NCBI GenBank assembly: GCA_037128595.1
Contig: JBAXWB010000011.1
Location: 17,714-81,713 of the forward strand
Direction of reading: 5' to 3'
DNA length: 64,000 nucleotides
Source of the DNA: a bacterium
Lineage (GTDB): Bacteria; Verrucomicrobiota; Kiritimatiellia; CAIKKV01; CAITUY01
Part shown: positions 6,601-41,949 of the stretch, one piece after another
Layout of the letters: the number at the start of each line of letters is the position of its first letter
How positions within the stretch are numbered: the first letter of the stretch is position 1
The notes under the pieces: model-generated
Database searches by the model: none
What the model saw: the letters and a program-made list of their open reading frames with translations, nothing else
Told to the model about the DNA's origin: nothing
Program-made: the position numbers and the translations under genes

Positions 6601-7237
6601 GGTGGCCATCGAGGAGTATCAGGAACATGAGGAACGCTATGCCTTCCTGACTGGCCAGCAACAGGATTTGATCAACGCCAAGGACCAGCTTATGGAAATG
6701 ATCAAAAAGATCAATCTGACCACCTCCGAACTGTTCGCCACCACCTTCGCGAAAATCAACGAGAACTTCCAGGTCATGTACGAACGTCTATTCAATGGCG
6801 GTTCGGCCAAGCTGGTCATGGTCACGGAGGACGATGTCCTGGAGAGCGGAATTGACATCATCGCCCGCCCGCCCGGGAAGCGCCTCCAAAGCGTATCCCT
6901 CCTGTCGGGTGGCGAGCGCACCATGACCGCCGTGGCCCTGCTGTTCTCTATTTACCTGATCAAGCCGAGCCCGTTCTGCCTGCTGGACGAACTGGATGCC
7001 GCGCTGGATGAATCCAACATCGGCCGATTCGTGACCGTGCTGGGCGACTTCCTCAAGATGTCGCAGTTCATCGTGATCACGCACAACCGGCGTACCATTG
7101 CGGCGGCCAGTGTGATTTACGGGGTCACCATGCAGGAGTCCGGAATTTCCCGCACCGTTTCCATGAAGTTTGCTGAATACGAACAGAGCAAGGACATGCA
7201 GCCCAATTCCAAGCGCATCATCATTCCGGTCAAGTAA
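3623..7237 (+). CDS. smc: chromosome segregation protein SMC
   Basis: N-terminal Walker A (GPNGCGKSN), long coiled-coil arms and a hinge. The C-terminal signature LSGGERTMTAVALLFSIY and a Walker B/D-loop are present. GTG start sits 8 nt downstream of AGGAG. Confidence 0.95.
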   Translation: MYLKSIHMVGFKSFANPTTLNFEPGMTAIVGPNGCGKSNVSDAVRWVLGETSAKALRGSKMEDVIFNGTDTRKPVGMAEVSITFTDCEQTLGTDYHEVTVTRRVFRSGEGQYFMNKTACRLKDIQRLFMDTGIGTSSYSLMEQGRIDQVLSSRPEDRREIFEEASGITRFKADKKEALRKLEQTEANLLRLDDVVREVKRQIGSLQRQAGKARRYKELRDQLRMFDVYWTARKLEKMDGDLQMLDTTITELGQKIQELHETLQQGEARGTEWRDAIMEIEQLIGETTEERATAQTRLEHNNDLIRINRDRIEELRNLAERDRRDSVLAASQAEQQRLTLTALKENLLTTIQERNDSEIEWNKKNADLASHEVQVEAARKEIQTLRASAMALDHTLSQLQNQLTQLEAKQQATIVQRERMAAEHAQIERGAAETESQLGQIAEHLGSLQQELETREGRLESLQSLRHEKTTEIEALRKECSEIQGQLAVKKAQIEILEADEQSAKDFPEGARLVMDATNPLGVNAKAVLGALASHIQTEPEYRTALESVLRAWLDAVVIADAPDALAILKELQTRKAGAIRLLAANAAAATPAVIPAPPGARRLFDVITCTPFAKPAVARFLANIFVVDSTEAIPSEIPEGSAVVTLGGVVARADGAFEYWATDARASNPLTRRHQLTDLHQGLEGLDEGLARRSHAVASLAAELTDLNRNIEEATQQLTAQRRAVALKEGEFQIVSNDARQSKQKLEVMAFELDKLRQQSGNDTERQGLSGQIAEGRAKQADMLRRLEELTHLLQDLEGQRSALQAAATEARLRFSEARQKAEHMDSQLEPIQHRLAELDSVIKSRSEGLVQYEKTIEQLTHATAEAESQLSTLQANASALAEKLELIKRQRTDKVKELSVLEAELMAKRELMDKIRDQRSKLEVNNAEHKMRRQNLIDRVTSEWTLTLEDVMRAPEPRPEGEDAPPVTETPAYEQVIAEVRTKIEAMGPVNLVAIEEYQEHEERYAFLTGQQQDLINAKDQLMEMIKKINLTTSELFATTFAKINENFQVMYERLFNGGSAKLVMVTEDDVLESGIDIIARPPGKRLQSVSLLSGGERTMTAVALLFSIYLIKPSPFCLLDELDAALDESNIGRFVTVLGDFLKMSQFIVITHNRRTIAAASVIYGVTMQESGISRTVSMKFAEYEQSKDMQPNSKRIIIPVK

Positions 7238-7249
7238 GCCGTTCAGATT

Positions 7250-8074
7250 ATGAATACTCCGCACGAAATCGACCCGGCCCGACTCCTTGAAATCGTTGTT
7301 CTGGCTGTACGGACCGCAGGCGATCATGCCAACGCCAACCGGCATCGCAGGATGGACACAATGATGGTGGCGGCCCATGACGTGAAGCTACAGCTCGACC
7401 TGGAATGTCAGAACATCATCTGGAGCCTCGTCCGCAAACATTTCCCGCAGCATGCCATCCTGGCGGAAGAAAGCGCCGATAAAGGACAACCGGCGGATGA
7501 CCCCCACCAGTCTCCCTATACCTGGATCATTGACCCGATCGACGGAACGGTGAATTTTTCACACGGCCTGCCCTGGTGGTGCTGTTCGGTGGCCGTAACC
7601 TATCAGGGCCAGACCGTGGCGGCGGCCGTCTATTCCCCCGCCACCCATGAGCTGTTCACGGCCGCCCGTGGCGGGACCGCCTGCTGCAACGGTCTTCCCC
7701 TCGCCGTCGCCGGGACCAAGGCACTCCGGGACTCCATGGTGCTGACCGGCCTGGATCAGAAGTCCACGGAACTCCCTCAGCGCTTGTCGCGTTTTCAGGC
7801 CATTTCAGACGCGGTTCAAAAAACACGCGTCATCGGGGCCGCCGCATTGGATATGTGCCGCGTGGCCGCCGGCCAGGCGGATGGCTATTTTGAAGCGGGC
7901 ATCTACACCTGGGATGTGGCCGCGGCCGGCCTGATCGTTGAACTCGCAGGCGGGCGCGTTGAAATTCTGGACAACCCCTCCCCCCATCGCCTCGTCTATA
8001 TGGCCACCAATGGCCACATCCACGACGAATTAAAAGCCCTGATTAACGGACTGGATTGCAAACGGAAAACCTGA
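7250..8074 (+). CDS. inositol monophosphatase family protein (SuhB-like)
   Basis: WIIDPIDGTVNFSHGLPWWCCSVAV matches the IMPase motif (DPIDGT). The C-terminal WD..AG motif is present. Confidence 0.8.
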   Translation: MNTPHEIDPARLLEIVVLAVRTAGDHANANRHRRMDTMMVAAHDVKLQLDLECQNIIWSLVRKHFPQHAILAEESADKGQPADDPHQSPYTWIIDPIDGTVNFSHGLPWWCCSVAVTYQGQTVAAAVYSPATHELFTAARGGTACCNGLPLAVAGTKALRDSMVLTGLDQKSTELPQRLSRFQAISDAVQKTRVIGAAALDMCRVAAGQADGYFEAGIYTWDVAAAGLIVELAGGRVEILDNPSPHRLVYMATNGHIHDELKALINGLDCKRKT

Positions 8075-8116
8075 AGTCCGGCCACCGGAGTCAGGAGACA
8101 GGATTCAGGAAACACC

Positions 8117-9625
8117 ATGAGTTTTAGAACACCTTTGATTCATCACACGATCCGGGCCCTGGTGCTGAGCATCATGCTGGGGCTCCCTTTGACCAGCCTG
8201 GCAGGGATTGACCGTCAGCGCCAGTCCGTCGCCAAGATCTACGTCACTGTGCAGCAGGAGGATTTCCGCCAGCCCTGGCAGTCCAGCCCGCCGATGAGCG
8301 GCAATGGCTCGGGCTTCATTATCAAGGGAAAGCGCCTGATGACCAACGCCCACGTCGTCTCTGATGCCCGCTTCATTGAAGTCCAGCGCGAAGGCGACAC
8401 CCGTAAATTTCCGGCGCACGTCCGGTTCATTGCCCACGACTGCGACATTGCCGTACTGGAAGTCAATGATGAAGCGTTCTTCGAAGGAACCAAACCCCTG
8501 ACGTTCGGCACCACCCTCCCCAGCCTGAATGACGCCGTGATCGTGCTGGGCTACCCCATGGGGGGCGGCCGCCTGTCTCTCACCAAAGGCGTGGTTTCCC
8601 GCATTGACTACAACCTCTATGCGCACAGTTCCATCGACTCCCACCTGGTGATGCAGGTGGATGCGGCGATCAATCCCGGCAATAGCGGCGGACCGGTGCT
8701 CTTCGACAACAAAGTCATCGGGATCGCGTTCCAGGGCATCGAGGCCTCGCAAAACATCGGCTATACCATCCCGCTCCCGGTCATCGAGCACTTCCTCAAG
8801 GATATTGACGACGGGACCTACGATGGTTACCCGGAACTGGGCGTGGACCATCTCCGCACCGAAAACCCGGCCTTACGCGTGAACCTCGGGCTCCCTAACG
8901 GGAGCAGCGGGGTGGTCGTCGCCAATGTGGACCCTTATGGGGCGGCGGCGGGACTGCTTAAGCCCCGCGATGTACTGCTGGCCATTGACGGCCACCCCAT
9001 TGCCAATGATGGTTCCGTCCGTCTGGATAACAACACGGTGGAATACACGGAGTTCGTGGAGCGCAAGCAATGCACCGAGAGCATCAATTTCACCATCTGG
9101 CGCGAGGATCAAACGCTCGCGATCGTGGTCCCCTTGAGGCGCAAGCCGGACCCGTTCATCTTCCGCCAAACCTATGACCAGAAGCCGGAGTACTTTATTG
9201 CCGGGGGCCTGATTTTCTCCCCCCTCAGCCGTGGCTATCTGGCCACACTGGGCACCGAACTCAATACCCCGCCGGCCCAGCACCTGCTTTACACCGCCCG
9301 CTACGCCAAACTCGACAACCTGATCAAGGATCGCAGTCAGTTCGTCCTGCTCACCGGACGCCTGCCCCACCCCGTCAACACCTATTGCACCAGTCACTTC
9401 AACCAGATTCTGGCCTCCGTCAATGGCCAGCTGATCCGTTCGATCGGTGACCTGCCTGAAGCCCTGAAAAAACCGGTTCAAGGCTTCCATGTCTTCCGCT
9501 TTGAAGGCCAGGATGACCCCCTGATCATGGATGCAGGGCAGGCCGCCAAAGCTGACTCTGAGATACTGACCCATTATAGCATCCCCTCCCTCTCCCGTAT
9601 TCTCCCAGCCCAGGAGGCCAAATAA
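8117..9625 (+). CDS. secreted trypsin-like serine protease, S1C/HtrA-like (catalytic His-Asp-Ser intact, PDZ domain, roughly 170-aa C-terminal extension)
   Basis: Signal peptide present. Triad motifs are TNAHVV (His), DCDIAVL (Asp) and GNSGGPV (Ser). A PDZ-like segment GSSGVVVANVDPYGAAAGLLKPRDVLLAIDG follows. Confidence 0.8.
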   Translation: MSFRTPLIHHTIRALVLSIMLGLPLTSLAGIDRQRQSVAKIYVTVQQEDFRQPWQSSPPMSGNGSGFIIKGKRLMTNAHVVSDARFIEVQREGDTRKFPAHVRFIAHDCDIAVLEVNDEAFFEGTKPLTFGTTLPSLNDAVIVLGYPMGGGRLSLTKGVVSRIDYNLYAHSSIDSHLVMQVDAAINPGNSGGPVLFDNKVIGIAFQGIEASQNIGYTIPLPVIEHFLKDIDDGTYDGYPELGVDHLRTENPALRVNLGLPNGSSGVVVANVDPYGAAAGLLKPRDVLLAIDGHPIANDGSVRLDNNTVEYTEFVERKQCTESINFTIWREDQTLAIVVPLRRKPDPFIFRQTYDQKPEYFIAGGLIFSPLSRGYLATLGTELNTPPAQHLLYTARYAKLDNLIKDRSQFVLLTGRLPHPVNTYCTSHFNQILASVNGQLIRSIGDLPEALKKPVQGFHVFRFEGQDDPLIMDAGQAAKADSEILTHYSIPSLSRILPAQEAK

Positions 9626-11145
9626 TGAACTGCTCCACACGTTCTGCCCGATTCGCGACGGTGATGCTGCTGGCCGCGACCAGTCTGGGCGCCCTGATCA
9701 GTCAGGCAACCCTCGCTGACACCAATATCCTGTCCGGCTGCGTGGCCGAAGTGCTTGTGACCGCCCAGAAGTTCGACTCCCACTTCCCCTGGAAAAAAGG
9801 GCGGCCGGAATCACGCGCCGGGTACGGAATCGTCATGGAGAACGGCCGCTTGATCACCACGGAGGATCTCGTCCGGAATGCCATGCTCATTGAAATTCAG
9901 CACCCCGGTGGCGCCACCAAAACAACGGCACGGGTGATCGAGGCGGATCCCCGGATCAATGCGGCCCTGCTGGAGGCCGATACCGGTGGATATACCGCCG
10001 CACAATGGGGTGCGCCGGTCGGGACGGGGGCCAAAGTCCAGATTATCCAATTTGACGAGGCCGGTCAGTTGCAAAGCGGTGATGGCCGGATCACCGGCAT
10101 CAAGGTATCCTCCCTCCCCAATGCCCCTCTCAGCATCCTGGCCTTTCAGGCCCTGACAGATCTCAAATTGGAACGGGTTGGCTCACCCGCCTTCCATGAG
10201 GGAAAACTGGCAGGCCTAATTATGGAATATGATGATGCCACGCAAACGAGTCTGGTCCTGCCGACGGCTATCCTCAAACGCTTTATCGAGGATATCAATG
10301 CCGCGCCCTACCGCGGCATTGCGGTGGCCGGAATGACCTGGGCACCCCTGATCGCTCCCGCCAACCGGAAATTTTACGGCCTGGCCGATGATGACCAGGG
10401 CATCTTGGTTCTGCGAACCATCCCCGGCAGCGGCGCCTCTGCGGTCCTGCAGTCTGGCGATGTCATTTTGAAGTGGGACGGGTATGCCATTGATTCCCAA
10501 GGATATTATACTGATCCGGACTTCGGGCGACTGGTTCTAATCCACCAGATTTCAGGCCGGCGCCATCCCGGTGATGTCATCACCATTACCCGCTGGCGCA
10601 ATCAGAAAAGCGAAGACGTGCCTCTCAAACTGGATGCCTACAGCGATTCCCGCTCCCTGGTACCACTGAACATTGAGGGGAACCAGGCGGAATACCTGGT
10701 GGAGGGAGGCTTTATCTTCCGCGAATTATCCGCTGATTATCTGCTCGCCAACGGGGCCCAGTGGATGGTCCGCTCCAATCCACGCCTGGTTGACCTCTAC
10801 CTGACGCGCGCCCAAGCCCCCGCCAAACCCGGCGAGCGGGTGATCATCCTCACCGGGGTCCTGCCGGACCCTATCAACGTGGGATATCAGGAAATTCGGG
10901 ATGAATGGGTCACGCAACTCAACGGTAAACCTGTATCAAACATGCGGGAGGTCTTTGCGATTCGCGATCAGGATGGCGGCCTCACCCGCATCCGCCTGAA
11001 AACACTAGGCCTGGATCTCGTGATGGATAAGGCGCTGCTCCCGGATGCCAATCGCCGGATCGCCATGCTCTACGGCATTCCGAAACGGGAACACCGGAAG
11101 CCACTTCCCGCCCTGGGCCCACTCCGCAGCGGCACCGGAAAATAA
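9625..11145 (+). CDS. HtrA-like pseudoprotease: secreted paralog of the upstream protease with the catalytic triad replaced
   Basis: Same architecture (signal peptide, protease fold, PDZ-like, homologous C-terminal domain EYLVEGGFIF...). The aligned His position reads TTEDLV and the Asp position reads NAALL, with no GNSGGP. Its start ATG overlaps the upstream stop (TAATG). Confidence 0.65.
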   Translation: MNCSTRSARFATVMLLAATSLGALISQATLADTNILSGCVAEVLVTAQKFDSHFPWKKGRPESRAGYGIVMENGRLITTEDLVRNAMLIEIQHPGGATKTTARVIEADPRINAALLEADTGGYTAAQWGAPVGTGAKVQIIQFDEAGQLQSGDGRITGIKVSSLPNAPLSILAFQALTDLKLERVGSPAFHEGKLAGLIMEYDDATQTSLVLPTAILKRFIEDINAAPYRGIAVAGMTWAPLIAPANRKFYGLADDDQGILVLRTIPGSGASAVLQSGDVILKWDGYAIDSQGYYTDPDFGRLVLIHQISGRRHPGDVITITRWRNQKSEDVPLKLDAYSDSRSLVPLNIEGNQAEYLVEGGFIFRELSADYLLANGAQWMVRSNPRLVDLYLTRAQAPAKPGERVIILTGVLPDPINVGYQEIRDEWVTQLNGKPVSNMREVFAIRDQDGGLTRIRLKTLGLDLVMDKALLPDANRRIAMLYGIPKREHRKPLPALGPLRSGTGK

Positions 11146-11245
11146 GAAGGAACGATCAATTCCCGATGACCCGGAAGACAACCCTCTTTACCGTCCCTCT
11201 CCAATCAGGTATAGTTAAAGCCATTTTTAACGGAGGAATATAATT

Positions 11246-12895
11246 ATGCAGGCATTGAAGAAATTAGCTTTCCCGGGACCCAAAGGCCCGGTGGTTCTGG
11301 TGATCATGGATGGCGTGGGCATCGGAAAATACGAAGAGGGCGATGCCGTCCGTTCCGCCCTGACCCCGAATCTCGACTGGCTGAAGGCGAATGCCCTCTC
11401 CAGCCAGCTCAAAGCGCACGGCATTGCCGTCGGCCTTCCCAGTGATGAGGATATGGGAAACAGCGAAGTGGGCCATAATGCCATCGGTTGTGGCCGCGTG
11501 TTTGCCCAGGGGGCCAGCTTGGTCAGCGACGCCATCAGCTCCGGCGCCATGTTCCGCGGCGAAGTCTGGAAAGCCCAGATTGCCAATTGCCTCAAATACA
11601 ACACTCCGCTCCATTTTATCGGCCTGTTTTCCGATGGCAATGTCCATAGCCATGTGGATCATCTCAAGGCCATGCTCACCCGGGCCAAGGCCGAAGGCGT
11701 GAAGTGCGCCCGGATTCATATCCTGTTGGATGGCCGGGATGTCGGCGAGACGTCCGCCCTGGATTATGTCGACCCCTTTGAACAATTCCTGGCAGGTCTC
11801 AATGCGGAGGGGACCGTGGACTACCGGATTGCTTCCGGTGGCGGACGGATGAACATCACGATGGATCGGTATAACGCCAACTGGGATATGGTTAAGCGCG
11901 GCTGGGATACCCATGTGCGCGGTCTGGGGGCCCAGTTCCCCTCGGCACGCACCGCCATCGAATCCCTGCGCCAAGCGACCCCGGGCGTCATTGATCAGGA
12001 TCTCCCGGCCTTCGTCATCGCGGACAAGGGGCACCCGATCGGCACGATTACCGACCACCACAGTGTGATCTTCTTCAACTTCCGCGGTGACCGGTCCATC
12101 GAAATCACCCGGGCATTCGAAGATGACGGCGTGACCGAGTTCGATCGGACCCCGCGTCCGAAGGTGCTGTTCGCCGGCATGATGCAATATGACGGGGATT
12201 TGAAGCTCCCGAAACACTATCTGGTTGAACCCCCGGCCATTGCCGAGACCATGGGCGAATATCTGGCCAAGGCCGGCATTAAGCAAATGGCCATCAGCGA
12301 AACGCAGAAATATGGACATGTCACCTATTTCTTCAATGGCAACCGCTCCGGGAAGTTTGATGCCACCCTGGAAGATTATTACGAAATCACGTCCGATATC
12401 CTCCCCTTTGAACAACGTCCCTGGATGAAGGCGGCGGAGATCACGGATGCCGTCCTGAAGGCCATTGCGGGAAACACGCACCGCTTCATCCGCCTGAACT
12501 TCCCCAATGGTGACATGGTCGGCCACACCGGGGTCTATCAGGCCACCCAGATCGCCGTGGAAACAGTGGATTTGTGCATTGGCCGCATGCTCCCCGCCAT
12601 TCAGGCGGCGGGCGGAATCCTGGTAATTTCAGCGGACCATGGAAATGCCGATGACATGTATGAGCATGACAAGAAATCAGGCAAAACGAAAACGGAGAAC
12701 GGCAAGATCAAAGTCAAGACCGCCCACTCACTGAATCCGGTCCCGGTGATCGTGTATGACCCGACCCACTGCGGAAAACTGAAACTCAGCACCCATCAGG
12801 GGCTCGGCATCAGCAGTCTGGCCGCCACCTGTCTCAACCTGCTCGGATTCGAGGCCCCGGCCAATTATGATCCCAGTGTGATTGAAGTCGGGTGA
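11246..12895 (+). CDS. gpmI: 2,3-bisphosphoglycerate-independent phosphoglycerate mutase
   Basis: VVLVIMDGVGIG... N-terminus and full-length iPGM pattern (Ser phosphatase domain, ADHGN motif). GGAGG RBS present. Confidence 0.93.
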   Translation: MQALKKLAFPGPKGPVVLVIMDGVGIGKYEEGDAVRSALTPNLDWLKANALSSQLKAHGIAVGLPSDEDMGNSEVGHNAIGCGRVFAQGASLVSDAISSGAMFRGEVWKAQIANCLKYNTPLHFIGLFSDGNVHSHVDHLKAMLTRAKAEGVKCARIHILLDGRDVGETSALDYVDPFEQFLAGLNAEGTVDYRIASGGGRMNITMDRYNANWDMVKRGWDTHVRGLGAQFPSARTAIESLRQATPGVIDQDLPAFVIADKGHPIGTITDHHSVIFFNFRGDRSIEITRAFEDDGVTEFDRTPRPKVLFAGMMQYDGDLKLPKHYLVEPPAIAETMGEYLAKAGIKQMAISETQKYGHVTYFFNGNRSGKFDATLEDYYEITSDILPFEQRPWMKAAEITDAVLKAIAGNTHRFIRLNFPNGDMVGHTGVYQATQIAVETVDLCIGRMLPAIQAAGGILVISADHGNADDMYEHDKKSGKTKTENGKIKVKTAHSLNPVPVIVYDPTHCGKLKLSTHQGLGISSLAATCLNLLGFEAPANYDPSVIEVG

Positions 12896-12983: not shown

Positions 12984-13385
12984 ATGACTGACCTTTTTCA
13001 ATGTCTCCGCTGTGGCAATTGCTGTCGGCATGAGGGAGAAGTGCGCCTTGACGACGGTGAGGCGGAGACCATTGCCGCGGGATTGGGATTGGATATTGCC
13101 ATCTTCACCGCTCAATTCACCCGGCTCAGGGATGACCGGCGCGGGTTATCCCTGAAGGATCAGCCGGACGGCGCCTGTATTTTTCTGGAAGGCACCCCAC
13201 CCGCCTGCCACATTCAAGCGGATAAGCCCCGCCAATGCCGCGACTTCCCCATGCACTGGAAGTATAGGGATTTGGAGGCGATCTGCCCCGCCGCCCGCGG
13301 ATGTGAAATTACGGGGAAACGCCTCACACCCCCGTCTTGGCAGTCCGCGCAAACGCCCGTTTCTCACGGGGCGTCAGCTGTTTGA
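12984..13385 (+). CDS. YkgJ-family cysteine-cluster protein (UPF0153 / putative Fe-S or Zn binding)
   Basis: CLRCGNCCRHEG ... CIFLEGTPPACHIQADKPRQCRDFP is the typical CxxCxxCC plus second Cys cluster. Confidence 0.65.
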   Translation: MTDLFQCLRCGNCCRHEGEVRLDDGEAETIAAGLGLDIAIFTAQFTRLRDDRRGLSLKDQPDGACIFLEGTPPACHIQADKPRQCRDFPMHWKYRDLEAICPAARGCEITGKRLTPPSWQSAQTPVSHGASAV

Positions 13386-13617
13386 TCTGATACTCCGCCT
13401 GGGAGGCCACCGAGCGGCTGGCAAATTCAACCACCGCCAGGAGTTTCCGGGGAGGGTGGGAACGGGTATAACGGGCCCCCGTCCCCTTCTGGTGTGCCTC
13501 ATAACGGGCGTCCACATCCACTGCAATGCCGGTGTAAATACTCCGGTCCACACATTCAATCAGGTAGAGAAACCAGGGCTTTCGCCCCTTCACCCCCACT
13601 TTTTTATCAACCTTCAT
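13324..13617 (-). CDS. GIY-YIG nuclease family protein (UPF0213/YhbQ-like)
   Basis: WFLYLIECVDRSIYTGIAVDVDARYEAHQKGTGARYTR matches the GIY-YIG core. It is convergent with ykgJ and overlaps its 3' end by 62 nt. Confidence 0.75.
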   Translation of the reverse strand: MKVDKKVGVKGRKPWFLYLIECVDRSIYTGIAVDVDARYEAHQKGTGARYTRSHPPRKLLAVVEFASRSVASQAEYQIKQLTPREKRAFARTAKTGV

Positions 13618-13633
13618 TCTGACTCCTTCACCC

Positions 13634-14854
13634 TCACCCCAATGTCTGATTCAGGGAGATAATCGGGAGAAGAACCGACAAGGTGACCAGCAGGACAAAA
13701 ATACCGATAGCGAGGATCAATATGGGCTCCAGCCAGCTCAAGGTCCGGCTGACATAGCGATTCCATTGATGCTGATAGGCATTGCCGGCCGTATCCAACA
13801 ACCGCTCCAGGGCACCACTGGCCTCACCTGCTTGAATCCAGGCTGGCAGGGAGCGGGCCAGCGGCGGGATACGCCGCATGGCGTCAGCCAGACTGCTTCC
13901 ATGCCGGATGGATTCCGCTTCCGCCTCCATCAAATGCGCCACCCAGACACTGCCGGTCGAACGGCCTGCCAACGCCATGGCATCCACCAACCCCACCCCG
14001 CCCTGGAGCAGAATGGATAATGTTCTGGCGCACCGGAGATTGACCGCAATGGTGTAGCCTCGGCCCACCAAGGGTACTTGAAATAGCCATTGATCCAACC
14101 GGTAACGCAACGCAGGCTCCGTGGCCATGCGCTGCATCAGATAGGACCGGCCAAACAAGCCGGCCAGCAGGGCGACCGGCAAACCGAACAGCAGTCCCCG
14201 TCCGAGCGCCATCATGAACCGGGTCAACAGGGGGAGTTGTAGCTTGTCGGACTGCTCAGAGATCACCGAAGCGGCGGCCGGCACAACAAACCCCAGTAAC
14301 ACCACGGCGACGATAATGGCAAAGGCCAGGATGATGGCCGGGTAAATCATCGCCGAGACAATTTTTTCGCGCAAGTGCTCCTGCTCTTCAAGGAATAACG
14401 CCAACCGCTCGAGCATGGCCTCTAAATTTCCCGACTTTTCGCCCACCTCGAGAATGGCTTTTTCGTATGGCTTGATATAGGGCGCCATTGTCATGAGAGC
14501 CCCCGCCAGGGAGGCCCCTTCGCGAATCCGATCGCGCACACCGGCCAGAAGCGAGGGCGACACACCCAATTCCGGGGACTCCATCAGGATTTCCATGGCG
14601 GCCACCAACGGGAGACCGGCCCCCAGTAGCACCCCCAGCTCGCGATAGAAGGCCACACGGCTTTCGGCCTTGAACGAAATACCGCGCCGGGCAGAAAGCC
14701 GGGAGCCGGCCACCGATTCGGAGGGGGAGACCTGCTGGGGAAGAACCCCGCGGGACATCAGCTTTTCGCGCGCCTCCTTGAGGTCCTGCGCCTCAATCAG
14801 GCCGCGTCTCACCGCGCCGGCACTATCAAAGCCTTTATAAGCAAAGGTGCGCAT
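13634..14854 (-). CDS. gspF: type II secretion system inner-membrane platform protein GspF (PilC/GspF family)
   Basis: Two GspF/T2SSF repeats with 3 TM segments. It sits directly after gspE with no gap. Confidence 0.85.
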   Translation of the reverse strand: MRTFAYKGFDSAGAVRRGLIEAQDLKEAREKLMSRGVLPQQVSPSESVAGSRLSARRGISFKAESRVAFYRELGVLLGAGLPLVAAMEILMESPELGVSPSLLAGVRDRIREGASLAGALMTMAPYIKPYEKAILEVGEKSGNLEAMLERLALFLEEQEHLREKIVSAMIYPAIILAFAIIVAVVLLGFVVPAAASVISEQSDKLQLPLLTRFMMALGRGLLFGLPVALLAGLFGRSYLMQRMATEPALRYRLDQWLFQVPLVGRGYTIAVNLRCARTLSILLQGGVGLVDAMALAGRSTGSVWVAHLMEAEAESIRHGSSLADAMRRIPPLARSLPAWIQAGEASGALERLLDTAGNAYQHQWNRYVSRTLSWLEPILILAIGIFVLLVTLSVLLPIISLNQTLG

Positions 14855-16435
14855 TTACGCTCCTGAAATTCCCAGGGCATACAAAATTTCGGCCAGACTG
14901 GTCCGGCCGGCCAGGACCTTGTCCAGTCCATCATCGAGCATGGTCAACCGGGTCTCACACCCGGGCAGATCGCGCATCTGGCGGGCGGCCGAGGCCCCGC
15001 TACGGATCAGGGCTTCAATTTCGCTATTCATCACCAGCATCTCAAAAATTCCGATTCGACCCCGATAGCCACCCAGACATTGGGGACATCCGGCCGGGGC
15101 ATAGAGGGTGGCTCCCTGTAACCGCTCGCCTGCCGCCCCCAGGAGTGACAGCTCGCGAGGCGAGACCGTGACCGGCTTGCGGCAATGGGGACATAACTGC
15201 CGTACCAACCGTTGGGCCAATACACCGCGCAAGGCAGCGGCCAGCAAATACGGTTCTACCGACATATCCATCATGCGGATCACGGCGCTGGCCGCATCAT
15301 TGGTGTGCAACGTGGTAAACACAAGATGTCCGGTCAAAGATGCCCGAACGGCAATTTCGGCCGTTTCGCTATCCCGGGTTTCCCCGACCAGCACCACATC
15401 GGGATCCTGCCGCAGGATATGTCGTAAACTACGGGCGAAGGTCAGTCCGATTTTGGGTTTCACCTGCATCTGCCCGATATCCTGCAATTGGTATTCAATG
15501 GGATCCTCAATAGTCATCACATTGCGGCCCCGGGTATCGAGTTTCTGGATGGCGGCATACAGGGTGGTCGTTTTACCGCTTCCCGTGGGACCACACACAA
15601 TGATCAAGCCGTTCGCCTCATGAAGCAGGGCGTCAAACGAATGGATCATCCCTTCAGGCATTCCCAGATCACCCAGTGTCATGACGGAAGAATCCCGGTT
15701 CAATAAACGCAAGACGACCCGTTCGCCTTCGGCCACCGGCACCGTGGAAACGCGGATATCGATTTCACGTTCCCCTACCCGCACGCGTGCCATGCCATCC
15801 TGAGGCAGCCGTTTCTCTGAAATATCCAAATGAGCCATCACCTTGATGCGGGACACCAACGTCCGCTCCAGGTGCTTGGGAGGGCTGGCCTGCTCATAGA
15901 GCACGCCATCCACCCGGTACCGGACCCGCAGACGCGAATGGAACGGTTCAAAATGGATGTCCGAAGCACGGGCCTTGACTGCTTCCAGCAGGATCACGTT
16001 GACCAATTGGGTGACAGGGGCTTCTTCCGCCGTTTTCAGGAGATCATCCGAACGCGCCTCCCCCGCCTTTTCCCCGCCATCCACCGGCTGGTCCATGTCG
16101 CGCAAAAAGTCTTCAGTCGATTCCTTTCGACTGACGTAACACCGCTCGATGGCCTTGAGGATCACTTCGGCGGGCGCGACGACGGGTCGTAATTCATTCC
16201 CTACCAACAGGGCAATATCCTGATGCTTCCCCACCTCGGCGGGATCCGTGACCAGCAGGCACAATTCGCCATCCAGACGCACCGGGAGCAACCCATGCGT
16301 ACGCGCCCATTCCACAGGAATGCCTCGCACGAGGACGGGGTCAAGCGACTCGTCACCAATCTCGGAAATGAAAACGAGACCGAATTCAAGGGCCCGTGCC
16401 CTCAACGCCTCGATGTTGTCTCTAGAATCGCTCAT
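14855..16435 (-). CDS. gspE: type II secretion system ATPase GspE
   Basis: Walker A VCGPTGSGKTTTLYA. Asp and His boxes and a tetracysteine CPHC...CPQC motif are present, with an N-terminal GspE_N domain. Confidence 0.9.
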   Translation of the reverse strand: MSDSRDNIEALRARALEFGLVFISEIGDESLDPVLVRGIPVEWARTHGLLPVRLDGELCLLVTDPAEVGKHQDIALLVGNELRPVVAPAEVILKAIERCYVSRKESTEDFLRDMDQPVDGGEKAGEARSDDLLKTAEEAPVTQLVNVILLEAVKARASDIHFEPFHSRLRVRYRVDGVLYEQASPPKHLERTLVSRIKVMAHLDISEKRLPQDGMARVRVGEREIDIRVSTVPVAEGERVVLRLLNRDSSVMTLGDLGMPEGMIHSFDALLHEANGLIIVCGPTGSGKTTTLYAAIQKLDTRGRNVMTIEDPIEYQLQDIGQMQVKPKIGLTFARSLRHILRQDPDVVLVGETRDSETAEIAVRASLTGHLVFTTLHTNDAASAVIRMMDMSVEPYLLAAALRGVLAQRLVRQLCPHCRKPVTVSPRELSLLGAAGERLQGATLYAPAGCPQCLGGYRGRIGIFEMLVMNSEIEALIRSGASAARQMRDLPGCETRLTMLDDGLDKVLAGRTSLAEILYALGISGA

Positions 16436-18363
16436 TGCGGACTAATGGCCGACGCTTCCGAATTGGTGATATTCAAACCGGTTTTCTGACTCCAGCGGTC
16501 AGTGGCCGCTTTGGCTGTCACTTCCGTTGACATCACATGCGGCGTCACAAAGATGATCAGATTTGTCCGTTGTTTGGCTTCCACCGTGCGGCGGAACAAA
16601 AACCCGATAAGCGGAATGGACCCCAACACCGGAATTTTACGGATGACATTCGACCGGTCTTCCCGGATCAGGCCGCTGATGACAATCGTGCGGCCATCCG
16701 GAACGGTCACCGTCGTTGACACTTCGCGCCTGGCAATCGTCGGGGCAAACTGAGTATCTGATGGCCCCGAATCAATGATGGCCTCTATACTGGGATTCAA
16801 GGTCATGCAGACCTCATTGGAGGGATTGATCCGCGGCGTCAGCTTGAGTTTGATGCCGACATCCAACCGGTCAATATTCTGAATGACATCACGTGACGTT
16901 CCGGAGCCGCCCTGGATGGTAGACTTGAGAATCGGGATGTTATTCACCACACTGACGCTGGCCTCCTTGTTATTCTGCGCCACCAGCGGGACACTCGAGA
17001 GGATTTTGACCTTCCCATTGGACTGCAAGGCATTGATGTTAATCATCCCCGGGAAGCTGGATACCATGTTGCCGCTACTGTCCAAGCGGGTCCCGCGCAC
17101 CACCCCCATCATGATGCCCTTGGGAAAGATCCCATTCTGGACCACGTCGTTAATACTCTTCGAATTGTCACTCAACCGGGTACTCCCCTGAATCACGGAA
17201 TCCCCCACCTTGGACGGCGCGTTCAGCGCTGTCAATTCAACGCCCACATCCAGCGAATCATCGGCGCTGACCTCGGCAATCACGACTTCAATCAGGACCT
17301 GATCCTGGAGCTGATCCAACTCGGACACGAGTGACTTCAACAACTCGAAATCCATCGGGGACGCATCCACCAACAAGGCGTTATTTGCCGTACTGGCCTC
17401 GACCGACAGTTTTTTCCGTTCACCGGCTTTGGGCGGGTCTTTGCCCATCGACCGCTCCAGCAAGGCATTCAGGCTTTTGGCCGCCTCATCGGCACTGATA
17501 TATTTCAGAAAGATGGCATGCAAATTACCGCGCCCCGTCGCAGTCTCCACATCCACGAGCGCCAGCAGTTTTTTAACCTCGGCAATTTCAGAAGCCGGCC
17601 CGATCAGGATCAGACTATTGGACTGCGGCGTGGAGACCATGACCAGTTCATTCCCGCGCGGGGCAGCCACGCCATCCCGGATCATCGGGCGCGGCCCAAT
17701 GGCTTGATTGTATTGCCGGACAAATTCCGCCGCATCCGCATTCTTGAGGAACACCACCTCACTCGTCGTTCCAACACCCGCCTTGTCAATCTCGGCAATG
17801 ATTTGTTCAAAACGCCGCACGTTATTCGCCGTATCGGTCAGGATAATGTGATTCGAGGACTCCAGAATGGCCGCCGTAGCGCCCTTTTCCCGCCCCGTCA
17901 GGGTATCAAGAATCTTCCTCAGATCCGCCACATTCGTATGCTTGAGGCGAATCACACGGGTAATGACCCCGTTCCCCTCGATGCGGCCATCCTCCCCGAT
18001 CACCGGAGCTGAGACAAGGGTCCGGGTCGGCATCACCACAATGCGGTTCAAATTGGGTTCCTCAATGACCGCACAGCCAACCGATTCCAGGATGCGCGTA
18101 AACAAGGGATAGGCCTCAGCCACGGGCACGCGGGGTGCCACCACGGTGATCTGGCCCTTCACGGCCTCATCCACAATGAACCGGCGCCCGGTCAGCTCCC
18201 CGATGATCTTCACAAAGGAGCGGATATCCACCTGACTGAAGGAGAAATTAACCGACGACTGCGGAGTGGTGATGGCTACCGGGCGTTCCTCGGCAGCAGG
18301 AAGGAAACTCCCTGACAGTGTCAGGGAGAGTCCCAGGCAAATCATTGGCAGTGATCGGTGCAT
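16432..18363 (-). CDS. gspD: type II secretion system secretin GspD
   Basis: N0/N1 domains (FSFSQVDIRSFVKIIGELTGRRFIV) and a C-terminal secretin domain. The start is placed at MHRSLPMICLGL... (signal peptide) with a GGGAGGA SD. The ORF-track start 18393 is 10 codons longer. Confidence 0.85.
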   Translation of the reverse strand: MHRSLPMICLGLSLTLSGSFLPAAEERPVAITTPQSSVNFSFSQVDIRSFVKIIGELTGRRFIVDEAVKGQITVVAPRVPVAEAYPLFTRILESVGCAVIEEPNLNRIVVMPTRTLVSAPVIGEDGRIEGNGVITRVIRLKHTNVADLRKILDTLTGREKGATAAILESSNHIILTDTANNVRRFEQIIAEIDKAGVGTTSEVVFLKNADAAEFVRQYNQAIGPRPMIRDGVAAPRGNELVMVSTPQSNSLILIGPASEIAEVKKLLALVDVETATGRGNLHAIFLKYISADEAAKSLNALLERSMGKDPPKAGERKKLSVEASTANNALLVDASPMDFELLKSLVSELDQLQDQVLIEVVIAEVSADDSLDVGVELTALNAPSKVGDSVIQGSTRLSDNSKSINDVVQNGIFPKGIMMGVVRGTRLDSSGNMVSSFPGMININALQSNGKVKILSSVPLVAQNNKEASVSVVNNIPILKSTIQGGSGTSRDVIQNIDRLDVGIKLKLTPRINPSNEVCMTLNPSIEAIIDSGPSDTQFAPTIARREVSTTVTVPDGRTIVISGLIREDRSNVIRKIPVLGSIPLIGFLFRRTVEAKQRTNLIIFVTPHVMSTEVTAKAATDRWSQKTGLNITNSEASAISPQ

Positions 18364-18389
18364 AGTCCTCCCTGCCCCGGGACAGACGG

Positions 18390-19166
18390 TCACTTAAGGA
18401 TGCCCCGCTCCGAGGTCTCAATAAACTTGATCAGATGCTCAATCTCAGGAACCTTCGGCAATTCAGCATGAATCCGCTCCATCGCCTGCCGGGTGGACAA
18501 CCCCTCCCGATAGAGAAGCTTGAAAGCTTTCTTGACGAGCGCCACGGTCTCGACCGAAACGTTCAGTCGCTGTAACTTCACTGAATTGATGCCATGCACT
18601 CCGGACGGATTGCCGTCCACGAGCATGTAGGGAGGAACATCCTGGGTGATTTTCGCCAGACCGCCAATCATCGCACAGGTGCCAATGCGGGTGAATTGGT
18701 GGATCCCGGACATGCCGCCAATCACGACATCATCCTCCACCAAAACGTCGCCCGACAGCGAGGCGTTATTCGCCATGATCACGCGATTGCCGACCTTGCA
18801 CCCATGCGCCACATGGCAATACGCCATAATGAGGGAGCCGGAACCGACCTTGGTGACTTCACCATCCATCGTGCCGGAATTGATGGTCACATACTCACGA
18901 ACCGTCGTCCGATCCCCGATCTCGACGTAGGTCTTGTTCCCGACCTTGTACTTCAGGTCCTGGGTCTGACTGCCGATACTGGCAAATGGAAAGACAATGC
19001 ATTCAGCGCCCATGCTGGTATGTCCATCAAGAAAGACCTGTGGCATCACCTTGGTCCGGTCCCCGAGTTTCACATTCGGGCCGATGATGCTATACGGGCC
19101 AATCTCAACGTCCACCCCGAGCAAAGCCCCTTCATGCACGATGGCTGAAGGATGAATCTTGGTCAT
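18390..19166 (-). CDS. lpxA: acyl-ACP--UDP-N-acetylglucosamine O-acyltransferase
   Basis: Left-handed beta-helix hexapeptide repeats with an LpxA C-terminal helical domain. Start MTKIHPSAIVHEGA overlaps the fabZ stop (ATGA). Confidence 0.9.
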   Translation of the reverse strand: MTKIHPSAIVHEGALLGVDVEIGPYSIIGPNVKLGDRTKVMPQVFLDGHTSMGAECIVFPFASIGSQTQDLKYKVGNKTYVEIGDRTTVREYVTINSGTMDGEVTKVGSGSLIMAYCHVAHGCKVGNRVIMANNASLSGDVLVEDDVVIGGMSGIHQFTRIGTCAMIGGLAKITQDVPPYMLVDGNPSGVHGINSVKLQRLNVSVETVALVKKAFKLLYREGLSTRQAMERIHAELPKVPEIEHLIKFIETSERGILK

Positions 19167-19609
19167 GCCGGCACCTTCTGATCCGCCAGCATACACATCA
19201 ATTCGGCTTCCGAGGCGAGTTCCCCGTCAACCAGAATCCGTCCAGCGAACCGGGCGATCTTGGTCTTATGCGTGATGATATCAATCTCAATGCGCAACTG
19301 GTCACCGGGCTTCACCACACGCCGGAACTTGGCTTTGTCAATGGACATAAAGAACGGAACCCGGTCGCCCGCCTTGGCCATCCGGTTGATCAGGATCCCA
19401 CCCGTCTGCGCCATGGCCTCAATCTGCAAGACCCCTGGCATCACCGGCACGCCGGGAAAATGGCCCTGGAAATAGGGCTCATTCATGGTCACGTTTTTGA
19501 TTCCCACGATGCGCTTCTGCTCATCGCACTCAATGATTTTATCCACCAGCAGGAAAGGATACCGGTGGGGTAACAACCTCATGATTTCCTGAATGTCCAT
19601 CGTCGCCAT
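19163..19609 (-). CDS. fabZ: 3-hydroxyacyl-ACP dehydratase FabZ
   Basis: LLPHRYPFLLVDKI...EPYFQGHFPGVPVMPGVL is the hot-dog fold FabZ signature. Confidence 0.93.
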   Translation of the reverse strand: MATMDIQEIMRLLPHRYPFLLVDKIIECDEQKRIVGIKNVTMNEPYFQGHFPGVPVMPGVLQIEAMAQTGGILINRMAKAGDRVPFFMSIDKAKFRRVVKPGDQLRIEIDIITHKTKIARFAGRILVDGELASEAELMCMLADQKVPA

Positions 19610-20857: not shown

Positions 20858-22642
20858 TCACTTCACTAATTCAAGTATTTCAGGAGAGACTTTCGCAATC
20901 AACGCACGGCAATGCTTGAGGACTTCCGCCGCGGTCTCGCAGGAAAGGGCCGTCTGCGCCAGTTCGATGGCCTGGGCGCGGGTGACACTGCGAATGAGCT
21001 CCTTGACGGCCGGTACAGAGGCGGGCACCATGCTCAACTCATCGATCCCCAACCCCATCAGCAGCAGCGTCATCAGCGGGTCGCCCCCCATCTGGCCGCA
21101 GACCCCCACCCAGATCCCCCGGGCATGCCCCGCTTCCACGGTGTGCCGAATCAGCCGTAGCACCGCCGGATGCGTGGGCTCATAGAGATGGGCCACCCGG
21201 TCGTTCACGCGGTCCACGGCCAGGGTGTATTGCGCCAGGTCATTGGTCCCGATACTGAAAAACGAGACGTGCTTGGCGATAATGTCTGCCGTCAGCGCGG
21301 CCGAAGGGATCTCGATCATGACACCCACTTCAATCAGGGCATCAAAGGCGATATTTTCCTGCCGCAACTCCGCCTTGCACTCCTCCAGAATCGCATTGGC
21401 CCGGATGACCTCCCCGACGTTACTGATCATGGGGTACATGATCCTGACCTTTCCGAAAGCGCTCGCCCGCAAAATGGCCCGCAACTGGGTTTTAAACATT
21501 TCCGGCTGGGCCAGGCAGAACCGGATTGCCCGGAAACCAAGAAAGGGATTCATCTCGGGCGGCATCCTGACCGAGGAGGCGAACTTATCCCCGCCAAGGT
21601 CAACGGTCCGGATAATCACCGGCTCCGGCGCCAGTAATGAGGTCACCCCTTTATACGCGGCCAACTGCTCCGCCTCGGTCGGTAGCTCGTCGTGGGCGAT
21701 ATACAGGTACTCCGAACGCAACAGGCCCACGCCGTGGGCACCATATTTCCGGATTTCCCTGGCTTCCTCCAGAAACTCGATATTGGCCGAGAGGATCACG
21801 CGATGATGATCCAGCGTCTCGGCCGGCAGATCACACAGCTGCGTCAGCCGGGCTTCGATCATCTTGCGTTGCTGCGCCAGCTTATTATATTTCTTAAGGG
21901 TGGCCTCAGAAGGCCGCAGAATCACGACCCCTTCGGTGCCATCCATCAGGATCCAGTCACCCGGGGAAAGCTTGTGGGTCACATCGCCCAACCCGACCAC
22001 CGCCGGTATTCCCATCGCCCGGGCCATAATGGCGGAATGCGAGGTCCGGCTCCCCATGTCGGTCGCAAACCCCAGCACCAGGCTCCGTCGCAGCGTGGCC
22101 GTTTCAGAAGGAGAAAGATCGGGGGAGACCACGACGCTTTTTTCTTTCAGGCCATCCAGCGCATGGGATTTTTCACCCGTGAGATTGCGCAACACCCGGC
22201 GGGCCACATCCTTGAAGTCAGAAACACGTTCCCGGAGGTATTCGTCTTCCACGGCCGAAAGCGCTTCCACATACCGGCTCGTCACGGCGCGCACCGCAGA
22301 TTCGGCATTCAGATGATCGGATTCAATCAGCCGGATCGTTTCATCAAAAAACGCGGCATCGTCCAAAATCAATTTATGAACGTCAAAAATGGTGGCATCC
22401 TGATGGCCGATGGCACGTTTAACATTATTCTGGATGACGGTAATCTGACGCCGGGTCACCACGACGGCCGCTTTGAACCGCGCCAGTTCAGCGGCAATCT
22501 CTTCGGGCTTGAGGGTTCGTTCGGAGAATTCAGTTTCTTCGGGACTGACCTTGTAGACGGGACCGATGACCACACCTGGGGAGACCCCCACGCCATGCAG
22601 GATGATGTCTGCCAGCCCACTGGGCCCCTGCACATTCGTCAT
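20858..22642 (-). CDS. ptsI: phosphoenolpyruvate-protein phosphotransferase (PTS Enzyme I)
   Basis: EI N-terminal domain and a phospho-His region (GSRTSHSAIMARAMGIPAVVG). PEP-utilising C-terminal TIM barrel. Confidence 0.93.
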   Translation of the reverse strand: MTNVQGPSGLADIILHGVGVSPGVVIGPVYKVSPEETEFSERTLKPEEIAAELARFKAAVVVTRRQITVIQNNVKRAIGHQDATIFDVHKLILDDAAFFDETIRLIESDHLNAESAVRAVTSRYVEALSAVEDEYLRERVSDFKDVARRVLRNLTGEKSHALDGLKEKSVVVSPDLSPSETATLRRSLVLGFATDMGSRTSHSAIMARAMGIPAVVGLGDVTHKLSPGDWILMDGTEGVVILRPSEATLKKYNKLAQQRKMIEARLTQLCDLPAETLDHHRVILSANIEFLEEAREIRKYGAHGVGLLRSEYLYIAHDELPTEAEQLAAYKGVTSLLAPEPVIIRTVDLGGDKFASSVRMPPEMNPFLGFRAIRFCLAQPEMFKTQLRAILRASAFGKVRIMYPMISNVGEVIRANAILEECKAELRQENIAFDALIEVGVMIEIPSAALTADIIAKHVSFFSIGTNDLAQYTLAVDRVNDRVAHLYEPTHPAVLRLIRHTVEAGHARGIWVGVCGQMGGDPLMTLLLMGLGIDELSMVPASVPAVKELIRSVTRAQAIELAQTALSCETAAEVLKHCRALIAKVSPEILELVK

Positions 22643-22647
22643 GGTGG

Positions 22648-22965
22648 TTATCCCTCGAAGAACTTGCTGTCCATCAGCGACTGGATTTCATCAAGGGCGG
22701 CCTCGGCGTCGACTCCGTCAGCAATGATCCGCAAGACGGTCCCGAAGCCAGCCTCAAGGGTCATGAGGCCCATGATGCTTTTACCGGACACCTTGTTGCA
22801 GCCCTTCTCAACGGTGACATCGGCCATGAAGCGGTTCGCGGCCTTTACAAAAAGAGCCGCCGGCCGTGCATGAAGCCCGAGCTTATTCTGGATCTTCAGT
22901 TCACGAACCAGAATCCGTTCGGACGCTTCGCGTTTTTGGCCCGCGTTACTCATCGTGTTTGTCAT
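22648..22965 (-). CDS. ptsH: phosphocarrier protein HPr
   Basis: GLHARPAALFVKAANRF (His15 region) and KVSGKSIMGLMTL (Ser46 region). The start may be the internal MSNAG. Confidence 0.88.
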   Translation of the reverse strand: MTNTMSNAGQKREASERILVRELKIQNKLGLHARPAALFVKAANRFMADVTVEKGCNKVSGKSIMGLMTLEAGFGTVLRIIADGVDAEAALDEIQSLMDSKFFEG

Positions 22966-39890: not shown

Positions 39891-40064
39891 TTATTTATTA
39901 GATCTTGTTCCGCGGGGTGGCATTAGCCCCCCGGCGGAAAACATCCGCTCGATTTCCGGATTCGCCGCATTAAAATCATCTAACACTACAAATTTTTCCT
40001 TGGCAATTCCGATGCGCTTAGCCATGGCTTTCGGGCGATTAGCGGGTGTATTTGAAAGTGACAT
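39891..40064 (-). CDS. small ORF (57 aa from MSLSN; start uncertain) with a C-terminal RIGIAKEKFVVLDDFNAANPEIERMF segment resembling the C-terminal motif of DUF2281-type antitoxin-like proteins
   Basis: The ORF track shows a 92-aa frame. There is no good SD for any start. The motif resemblance is from memory of the family, and the N-terminal part is not similar. Confidence 0.25.
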   Translation of the reverse strand: MSLSNTPANRPKAMAKRIGIAKEKFVVLDDFNAANPEIERMFSAGGLMPPRGTRSNK

Positions 40065-41915: not shown

Positions 41916-41949
41916 AGTGATTGACTCCTTAGCTTCTTAATCATTCAGT

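Follow-up and report, generated by a model that had tools for sequence, protein, structure and literature searches.

Why would a bacterium keep, immediately behind an HtrA-type protease with an intact catalytic triad, a full-length copy of the same protein from which this triad is gone? The question is raised by two genes, hereafter A and B, which occupy positions 8117 to 11145 of a 64,000-nucleotide stretch of contig JBAXWB010000011.1 (assembly GCA_037128595.1, Kiritimatiellia); this whole stretch is referred to as the window. In the bacterial envelope, ATP-independent quality control is carried out mainly by HtrA proteases, whose regulation has been worked out almost wholly on homo-oligomers such as DegP, DegQ, DegS and Deg2. 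The analysis reported here shows A and B to be a conserved pair of protease and pseudoprotease, B not being a decaying duplicate. As to the function of the pair, a stable hetero-oligomeric Deg2-like cage in which B would serve as non-catalytic subunit is suggested, a reading to which slightly better than even chances are given.

Two paralogous genes and one catalytic triad

Gene A (8117..9625, plus strand) encodes a protein of 502 amino acids, predicted to be an active HtrA protease of the Deg2/Deg9 type, which is composed of a signal-like segment (amino acids 1-30), the protease domain (~37-230), a first PDZ domain (PDZ1, ~231-345) and a second one (PDZ2, of the Pfam family PDZ_3, ~346-492). 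Gene B (9625..11145, plus strand) encodes a triad-less paralog or pseudoprotease of 506 amino acids with the same order of parts, namely a signal-like segment (1-31), a degenerate protease domain (~39-224), PDZ1 (~225-343) and PDZ2 (PDZ_3, ~344-488). Comparison of both proteins by BLASTP gave 24% identity across 460 amino acids (E 1e-30), whereby the alignment spans the protease domain, PDZ1 and the C-terminal domain; hence the full-length paralogy, which a first-pass annotation of the window had claimed, is not a matter of chance.

The catalytic residues of A, aligned to Deg2 His159, Asp190 and Ser268, are His79 (codon 8351..8353), Asp110 (8444-8446) and Ser190 (8684-8686, inside the GNSGGP motif), all on the plus strand, and these positions were found to be 100% conserved across 44 A-type partners. 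The corresponding positions of B are occupied by Asp81 (9865..9867), Asn112 (9958-9960) and Val185 (10177-10179), likewise on the plus strand, so that the motifs TNAH79VV, HDCD110IAVL and GNS190GGP of A share their columns with TTED81LV, RIN112AALL and ERV185GSP of B. The replacement of the catalytic His and Asp and the lack of GNSGGP, already claimed in the first-pass annotation, were recovered consistently by BLASTP, by HMMER alignments to Deg9 and Deg2 and by several MAFFT alignments. The triad and the GNSGGP-type oxyanion loop that characterize HtrA/DegP proteases are thus present in A and absent from B (ERVGSP instead), which identifies B as an HtrA/DegP homolog but not as a protease member of this family.

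The first-pass annotation had left room for the triad being retained in B upon proper alignment; this did not hold among the relatives either. None of the 92 cluster representatives matched by B (94-40% identity) possesses the triad, given that a His in the His column was found in none of them and a Ser in the Ser column in two (P0051, P0062). Likewise, 143 of 145 scorable representatives from a larger search described below lack it, as do 346 of the 466 sequences in a pooled alignment, the remaining 120 sequences forming the A-type class, which is defined by the presence of His, Asp and Ser at the triad positions. Not one of the 346 triad-less sequences holds both His and Ser. A His in the canonical column occurs in six and a Ser in eight of them, never together; relatives with such a single residue include P0215, P0226, P0227, P0278, P0294 and P0311.

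These few relatives, together with the acidic TTEDLVR motif retained at the former active site in the close clade of B, could be taken to mean that B is enzymatically active via non-canonical residues or that its triad was missed by misalignment. Yet four independent alignment methods agree, the residue in the His column varies nearly freely across sub-clusters (D, S, T, R, H, N, A, E, Q, P, W and others), and the L1/oxyanion loop GNSGGP is gone. Moreover, an alignment of 70 B-family sequences contains zero invariant His, Ser, Cys or Lys residues, rendering an alternative nucleophile unlikely. Residual activity of B is consequently regarded as highly improbable. In public databases, B-type proteins are named 'hypothetical protein', 'PDZ domain-containing protein' or 'S1-C subfamily serine protease', and on the basis of the residues described above the automatically given name of a serine protease is wrong.

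Domain composition and predicted fold

The C-terminal domain shared by both proteins had been described in the first-pass annotation as some 170 amino acids that could not be assigned to a known family. This part of the annotation has to be revised, as profile searches identified the C-terminal ~145 amino acids of both proteins as Pfam PDZ_3 (PF17815), with E 2.4e-24 for A (amino acids 351-491) and E 3e-22 for B (346-488), both matches being far over the cut-off of 22.8 bits. An atypical second PDZ domain following a conventional PDZ1 is a trait of the Deg2/Deg9 subfamily and is found in both proteins. In Deg2, the PDZ_3-type domain is the unusual PDZ2, which holds an internal ligand and organizes the hexameric cage (PMC3481350). 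Within the protease domain, A matches Trypsin_2 (4.6e-24) and Trypsin (1.4e-15); B reaches Trypsin_2 with just 9e-06, which lies under the Pfam cut-off, and otherwise matches PDZ families only. No NCBIfam model reached its cut-off for A or B.

The plant proteases Deg9 and Deg2 proved to be the nearest relatives of solved structure for both A and B. Compared with structures in the PDB, A matched Deg9 (5il9, E 8e-77) and Deg2 (4fln, E 6e-75) over amino acids 35-492, and its sequence is 100% identical to P0093, an NCBI protein from a metagenome-assembled genome (MAG) that is named 'trypsin-like peptidase domain-containing protein'. B alone matched the Deg9 and Deg2 structures with E 5e-36 to 3e-30, and the B-family profile did so with E 1e-82. 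An AlphaFold2 (AF2) model of B, built from the 70-sequence alignment, reached a predicted local distance difference test score (pLDDT) of 92.2 and a predicted template modelling score (pTM) of 0.86. Foldseek superposed this model on whole Deg2/Deg9 protomers with template modelling (TM) scores of 0.83-0.91 and root-mean-square deviations of 2.2-2.9 Å, as compared with TM scores of only ~0.45 for DegP and DegQ. Since the model covers whole protomers, B is considered a complete Deg2/Deg9-type protomer minus the catalytic residues. HtrA/DegP proteins are defined by a protease domain of chymotrypsin fold with one or more PDZ domains behind it; this arrangement was accordingly found in A and B alike, for B via the AF2 model and Foldseek.

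Both proteins begin with basic residues and a hydrophobic core, followed by SLA|G in A and TLA|D in B. Secretion, as claimed in the first-pass annotation, is therefore in line with signal-like N-termini, although these were read by eye only, and both proteins are probably exported to the periplasm. An LSGC sequence in B (amino acids 36-39) was considered as lipoprotein motif and rejected: its Cys is unconserved (family consensus SVVEV) and lies ~13 residues past the hydrophobic core. Some B-type proteins, e.g., P0214 (659 amino acids) and P0083 (622 amino acids), carry 100-190 additional N-terminal residues. The stop-to-stop open reading frames (ORFs) of the A-type genes in four related loci (L010, L017, L029 and L032) extend to 662-948 amino acids. 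In both the B-type and the A-type cases, the additional length may reflect a real extension or just an open upstream frame.

Gene junction, occurrence and conserved adjacency

The tandem arrangement of the two overlapping ORFs and the TAATG junction proved to be as first annotated. Direct reading of the junction (9612..9627, plus strand) revealed that the stop codon of A (TAA, 9623-9625) and the start codon of B (ATG, 9625-9627) have one base in common, and that a Shine-Dalgarno-like AGGAGG (9612-9617) is embedded in the 3' coding end of A, seven bases ahead of the ATG of B. A and B are thus read in different frames and constitute two separate ORFs. A scan of positions 7000-11600 for promoters and terminators gave counts at or below the shuffled expectation, with no candidate separating A from B or immediately following B. 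From the overlapping stop and start codons we infer translational coupling of both genes.

The pairing is not restricted to the window. Scanning one genome per species with the B-family alignment identified 41 loci from Kiritimatiellia, Lentisphaerota/Victivallales, Verrucomicrobiota-labelled and 'PVC group' MAGs. In 39 of 39 loci with upstream DNA, an A-type gene with GNSGG, 47-85% identical to A, lies immediately upstream of B on the same strand; the other two loci are cut by contig ends. A metagenome search starting from the A side gave the same picture, as seven of seven close relatives of A were found to be directly followed by B, and behind a more distant relative (L056) lies a triad-less paralog that overlaps it in ATGA. 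When the candidate B start nearest to the A stop is considered, stop and start codons overlap in 31 of 38 loci (ATGA or GTGA in 24, TAATG or TGATG in four, an 8-nucleotide overlap in three). Two ORFs are present in each of the 38 related loci whose A-B junction is uninterrupted.

A natural A-B fusion seemed to be encoded in one Victivallales MAG (L026, 2167-5511) and was rejected, since its 1114-amino-acid ORF spans 10 N that replace the 3' end of A and is thus an assembly artefact; no fusion-length proteins were seen among the homologs listed. A conserved third gene or neighbourhood was likewise looked for and rejected: flanks are unlike in all but two to three of the B-side loci, the genes for an SMC protein and a suhB-like protein precede the pair only in L001 and L003, and gpmI follows it only in L001 and, in addition, L042.

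At larger scale, the B-family profile was compared with 1.84 billion representatives of 50%-identity clusters, yielding 10,084 matches at E <= 1e-3 and 1,298 at E <= 1e-30. Of the best 150 representatives, 143 are missing the His, the Ser or both, another five are fragments that do not cover the respective region, and two (P0325, P0333) possess His, Asp and Ser and cluster with A. The 143 triad-less representatives form about ten sub-clusters, each having its own substitute for GNSGGP (e.g., GWAEPV, SFTLPV); the names in one large sub-cluster derive from MAGs of Chthoniobacteraceae, Verrucomicrobiaceae and other Verrucomicrobiota. For eight of eight representatives, taken from eight different sub-clusters, the triad-less gene directly follows a same-strand gene with trypsin and PDZ_3 domains, whereby overlap is usual. 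The neighbours of these eight loci are unrelated, and GC contents across the nine distant triad-less loci (L044-L048, L056, L059-L061) are 27-66%, the very AT-rich L047 (GC 31%) and L060 (GC 27%), which also carry the active/dead pair, being among them. A neighbour of the pair in L047 carries the domain DUF1574, which we take to be typical of Leptospira and which suggests that the module extends past the PVC group. No paper on this bacterial pair was found in the literature.

Selective constraint and origin of the pair

If B had been inactivated recently, it should by now be on its way to a pseudogene, and both the loss of all three catalytic residues and its evolutionary rate, about 1.6 times that of A, would fit this explanation. 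The ratio of non-synonymous to synonymous substitution rates (dN/dS), determined according to Nei-Gojobori, does not. For B it amounts to 0.10 (window versus L042, dS 0.30), 0.12 (versus L001) and 0.11 (L004-L007 and L005-L009), i.e., 0.09-0.12 overall at dS 0.2-0.9, and thus is close to that of the suhB-like neighbour (0.11-0.12); values of 0.05-0.14 were obtained for A and of 0.04 for gpmI. Resolved by domain (medians over pairs with dS 0.05-1.5), dN/dS is 0.074 (range 0.061-0.085) for the protease domain of B and 0.054 for that of A, 0.085 and 0.079 for PDZ1, and 0.059 and 0.092 for PDZ2 of B and A, respectively. By this measure, the dead protease domain of B is itself tightly constrained. 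With dN/dS being ~0.1 overall and 0.074 in the dead protease domain, with ORFs that are intact in every complete locus looked at and with an A-type gene always adjoining, the possibility that B is a decaying duplicate, already disfavoured in the first-pass annotation, is excluded; neither absence nor pseudogenization of the second gene was seen in the relatives, which retain it intact and under purifying selection.

The age of the duplication leads to the same conclusion. A neighbour-joining tree of 44 A/B pairs separated A from B in 100 of 100 bootstraps, which points to one ancient duplication before the divergence of the 44 lineages, and the triad-less family comprises more than 100 clusters at 50% identity. 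Mean identities among the 44 pairs are 0.54 (A-A), 0.42 (B-B) and 0.24 (A-B), and A-A and B-B distances are correlated (r = 0.94) with a slope of 1.6, from which the faster evolution of B derives. The simplest reading would be a single ancient duplication with loss of the triad, followed by co-inheritance of both genes. An ongoing conversion of B into a pseudogene is hence regarded as refuted.

Constraint is distributed differently in the two families. Mean column conservation in the A family is highest in the protease domain (0.73; PDZ1 0.62, PDZ2 0.59), and in the B family it is lowest there (0.53; PDZ1 0.58, PDZ2 0.60). A number of positions that are conserved in A, among them the triad, the GNSGGP loop and nearby active-site loops, vary freely in B, and the few positions conserved in B only (Trp380, Tyr421, Asn476) are all located within PDZ2. 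PDZ domains conserved at least as well as those of A, combined with a relaxed protease domain, would be expected of a transient allosteric regulator, i.e., an activator or inhibitor of A that senses a signal peptide via its PDZ domains. Precedent for this exists in the pseudoprotease MamO, whose non-catalytic function includes activation of MamE-dependent proteolysis; pairing of active and inactive HtrA proteins arose repeatedly by duplication, MamE duplicates having lost the triad three separate times (PMC4794232). Against a regulator that is bound only transiently stand the low dN/dS of the dead protease domain and the retention of residues that make up a rigid cage module (see below), which together point to a structural role for the whole B protein; moreover, coupled synthesis at ~1:1 would be unneeded for a catalytic regulator. 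Regulation of this kind is therefore considered unlikely, a little more so than an independent chaperone function of B, which is discussed below.

Cage contacts and the proposed assembly

Deg2 numbering was transferred to A and B via the 4fln alignments (chain index + 68 = Deg2 number), and for 20 of 20 residues named in the Deg2 paper (PMC3481350) this mapping gave the right letter. In Deg2, Trp134 of loop LA stacks on Tyr440 of the internal PDZ2 ligand, and the two lock the protomer as a rigid cage module (PMC3481350). Both proteins possess the equivalents (Trp54/Tyr359 in A, Trp56/Tyr357 in B), which are 93-100% conserved in the 44 pairs and 82-100% conserved in the 466 sequences, whereby the lock was scored by the presence of the residues. 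Next to the three-domain fold and the lock, B also retains the PDZ1 binding loop.

The contacts between the trimers of the Deg2 hexamer show a different pattern. In Deg2, the PDZ1 loop 328-332 (QKLEN, with Asn332) touches the PDZ2 turn 497-499 (I-G-Y) and beta27 of the opposite trimer, and Val490 and Ala492 are part of the other trimer-trimer interface (PMC3481350). The equivalent of Asn332 in A is Asn250 (8864..8866, plus strand) within LRTENPALR, and the PDZ2 turn Ile497-Gly498-Tyr499 corresponds to Val419-Gly420-Tyr421 of B (10879..10887, plus strand). At the PDZ1 donor position, Asn prevails among the 120 A-type sequences (0.97; 97-100% over both alignments) and Asp among the 346 triad-less ones (0.78). 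At the PDZ2 acceptor position, the triad-less sequences retain Gly and Tyr (0.95 each; 95-100%), and the A-type sequences show T-Y-x instead, with Tyr at the Gly position (0.97). At the Val490 equivalent, A-type sequences carry Arg (0.94) and triad-less ones Val (0.81), which in B is Val412. This is suggestive, but only that, of an ancestral contact divided between the paralogs, whose PDZ1 'donor' half was retained by A and whose PDZ2 'acceptor' half was retained by B. Such a split is expected if a homotypic trimer-trimer contact became a heterotypic contact from A to B, and it argues against two independent Deg2-like homo-hexamers without proving a hetero-hexamer.

The same split bears on the possibility that B works independently of A as a chaperone or holdase of the periplasm, forming its own homo-oligomeric cage and being merely co-expressed with A to divide folding from degradation. 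HtrA proteins without nucleophile keep chaperone activity, and Deg2 is a dual protease-chaperone (PMC3481350); B has the fold in full, along with the LA-PDZ2 lock residues and the PDZ1 binding loop, all three of its domains are under purifying selection, and adjacency to A could be explained by co-regulation alone. However, the donor Asn of the homotypic contact is replaced in B and the acceptor turn is replaced in A, as would be expected if neither paralog closes a Deg2-like cage on its own, and strict gene order with overlap across very divergent genomes is a pattern seen more often where the products are subunits of a single complex. An independent holdase is for these reasons held to be rather unlikely.

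The preferred reading, a hetero-oligomeric cage, would imply the following. A, catalytically competent by virtue of its intact triad, would be the catalytic subunit, and the overlapping stop and start codons would cause A and B to be made in roughly equal amounts. Both would assemble into a Deg2-like cage, in its simplest form one trimer of A on top of one trimer of B, whereby the conserved ENPALR loop in PDZ1 of A, with Asn250, would contact the conserved V-G-Y turn and Val412 in PDZ2 of B. In such an assembly, B would form a non-catalytic wall of the cage and act as substrate-holding subunit, via peptide binding to its PDZ domains, or as gating subunit, and in this way control access to the active sites of A or their activation. 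Physical association, its stoichiometry and a gating or chaperone role of B are hence predicted features. With this, the conserved protease/pseudoprotease pair of the first-pass annotation stands, and its suggestion of a hetero-oligomeric or regulatory partnership, in itself a prediction, is backed by the complementary retention of the Deg2 interface.

Several points weigh against the hetero-oligomeric cage. The association of A with B is predicted from sequence and gene order, and co-regulation together with a shared phylogeny would also give adjacency and correlated rates. Long-branch attraction in the neighbour-joining tree could exaggerate the monophyly of the fast-evolving dead copies. 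The Deg2 'acceptor' contacts are partly backbone hydrogen bonds, so that side-chain conservation at these positions is merely suggestive, and Deg9, an equally close homolog, is an octamer and not a hexamer, hence the geometry may differ. Finally, a spacer replaces the overlap in seven of 38 loci (3 nucleotides in three, 25-137 nucleotides in four), and start codons were picked by proximity.

A more far-reaching idea is that the pair represents the founding case of an obligate heteromeric bacterial HtrA cage in which a catalytic trimer would be closed by a dedicated non-catalytic one via a one-way contact from PDZ1 of A to PDZ2 of B. The cage would be inherited as an ancient bicistronic module, present across Kiritimatiellota, Lentisphaerota and Verrucomicrobiota and in further lineages of 27-66% GC, and would constitute an unfused bacterial counterpart of DEG7/Nma111. 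This is put forward tentatively, its chances being rated as somewhat less than even. Given a large triad-less family that is always encoded directly behind an active partner, a sizeable bacterial group, to which abundant PVC lineages of freshwater, soil and gut-related origin belong, may rely for its envelope proteolysis on a two-component active/inactive machine.

Comparison with known protease pairs and assemblies

Like the plant proteins Deg2 and Deg9 (4FLN, 5IL9), A and B each possess a protease domain, PDZ1 and an unusual PDZ2, and the lock residues are found in both. Deg2 and Deg9 are, however, homo-oligomers of eukaryotic organelles or the nucleus, each encoded by a single gene and carrying the full triad, whereas here two bacterial genes are involved, one of which is triad-less; unlike in the Deg2 hexamer, A and B each retain only one half of the contact between PDZ1 and PDZ2*.

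With regard to the succession of units, the pair resembles DEG7/Nma111 (Ynm3) of plants and fungi, in which an active unit comes first and a degenerated one second, each followed by PDZ domains. No match to Pfam PDZ_1, which we take to be the Nma111-type domain, was obtained for A or B at E <= 0.1, and no DEG7/Nma111 structure was found among the 60 listed PDB matches of the B-family profile, the 11 of B and the best 60 of 104 of A. DEG7 trimerizes through its degenerated protease domain, and its authors proposed duplication, fusion and degeneration as its origin, an inactive HtrA domain from a separate gene being undescribed at that time and orthologues being listed only from eukaryotes (PMC3194040). 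In the Deg2 paper, Deg7 is not counted among the members of the Deg2 subfamily (PMC3481350). In contrast to DEG7, which is one fused polypeptide, A and B are bacterial, unfused and of the Deg2/Deg9 subtype. Even granting the obligate heteromeric cage, an evolutionary relationship of the pair to DEG7/Nma111 is improbable. The pair would supply a separately encoded analogue for the origin of DEG7/Nma111.

The closest bacterial parallels are MamE/MamO and MamE1/MamE2 of magnetotactic bacteria, where an HtrA protease is likewise accompanied by a separately encoded pseudoprotease. MamO carries a TauE-like transporter domain. It furthermore binds metal via a di-histidine motif (PMC4794232). None of the MamO-type traits, i.e., the di-histidine site, the TauE-like domain and the location on a magnetosome island, was found for B. 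Unlike MamO, a member of another HtrA lineage that occurs on magnetosome islands only, the B family is much older and broader, and B shares the full architecture of its partner, matches Pfam Trypsin_2 and PDZ families only, has no invariant His and is encoded among housekeeping genes.

Hetero-oligomeric protease assemblies built from paralogs are also known from Deg5-Deg8, which form a hetero-complex in the thylakoid lumen, and from ClpP/ClpR; for A and B such an assembly is predicted. ClpR is a triad-less ClpP paralog inside one ring (PMC3194040). Deg5 and Deg8 both possess catalytic serines, their structures having been solved as S266A and S292A mutants (PMC3640471). Unlike A and B, Deg5 has no PDZ domain, and the Clp proteins are of an unrelated fold. 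Taken in this context, the pair does not constitute a new category but is a previously unnamed, ancient and widespread case of the documented active/inactive HtrA pairing.

Genomic surroundings of the pair

Taken as a whole, the window is an ordinary piece of chromosome from a Kiritimatiellia-like MAG. Within it, the neighbours of the pair are housekeeping genes that encode SMC, a suhB-like inositol monophosphatase and a phosphoglycerate mutase (gpmI). Compared with L001, the closest titled locus, identities amount to 83-84% for A and B and to 94% for SMC and GpmI. Further downstream, an ORF with a CxxCxxCC zinc/iron-chelating domain (12984-13385, plus strand) overlaps a convergent ORF of 97 amino acids with a GIY-YIG nuclease domain (13324-13617, minus strand); zinc/iron-chelating and GIY-YIG genes also follow gpmI in L042. 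A block resembling type II secretion or type IV pilus systems lies downstream of the pair on the minus strand and comprises genes for a T2SS-F protein (13634-14854), a T2SS-E ATPase (14855-16435) and a GspD-type secretin (16432-18393); a gene for an LpxA-like acyltransferase (18390-19196) comes after it, the region as a whole spanning 13634-19196.

GC skew is negative in all 2-kb blocks of the 64 kb except 40001-42000 (+0.03), the plus strand thus being C-rich, and no tRNA genes or Rfam families were detected in a scan of the window. The genes for PtsI (enzyme I of the phosphotransferase system; 20858-22642, minus strand) and HPr kinase (22946-23920, minus strand) are located ~10 kb from that for sigma-54 (rpoN; 33012-34445, plus strand) and form with it an HprK/RpoN-type regulatory set. 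Directly after rpoN, an ORF of 408 amino acids (34449-35675, plus strand) contains a GDSGG motif, a sub-threshold match to Trypsin_2 (E 0.0066, amino acids 56-204) and a bacterial TSP3 repeat (E 3e-05); its product, for which no family scored above the Pfam cut-off, is possibly a divergent trypsin-like protease.

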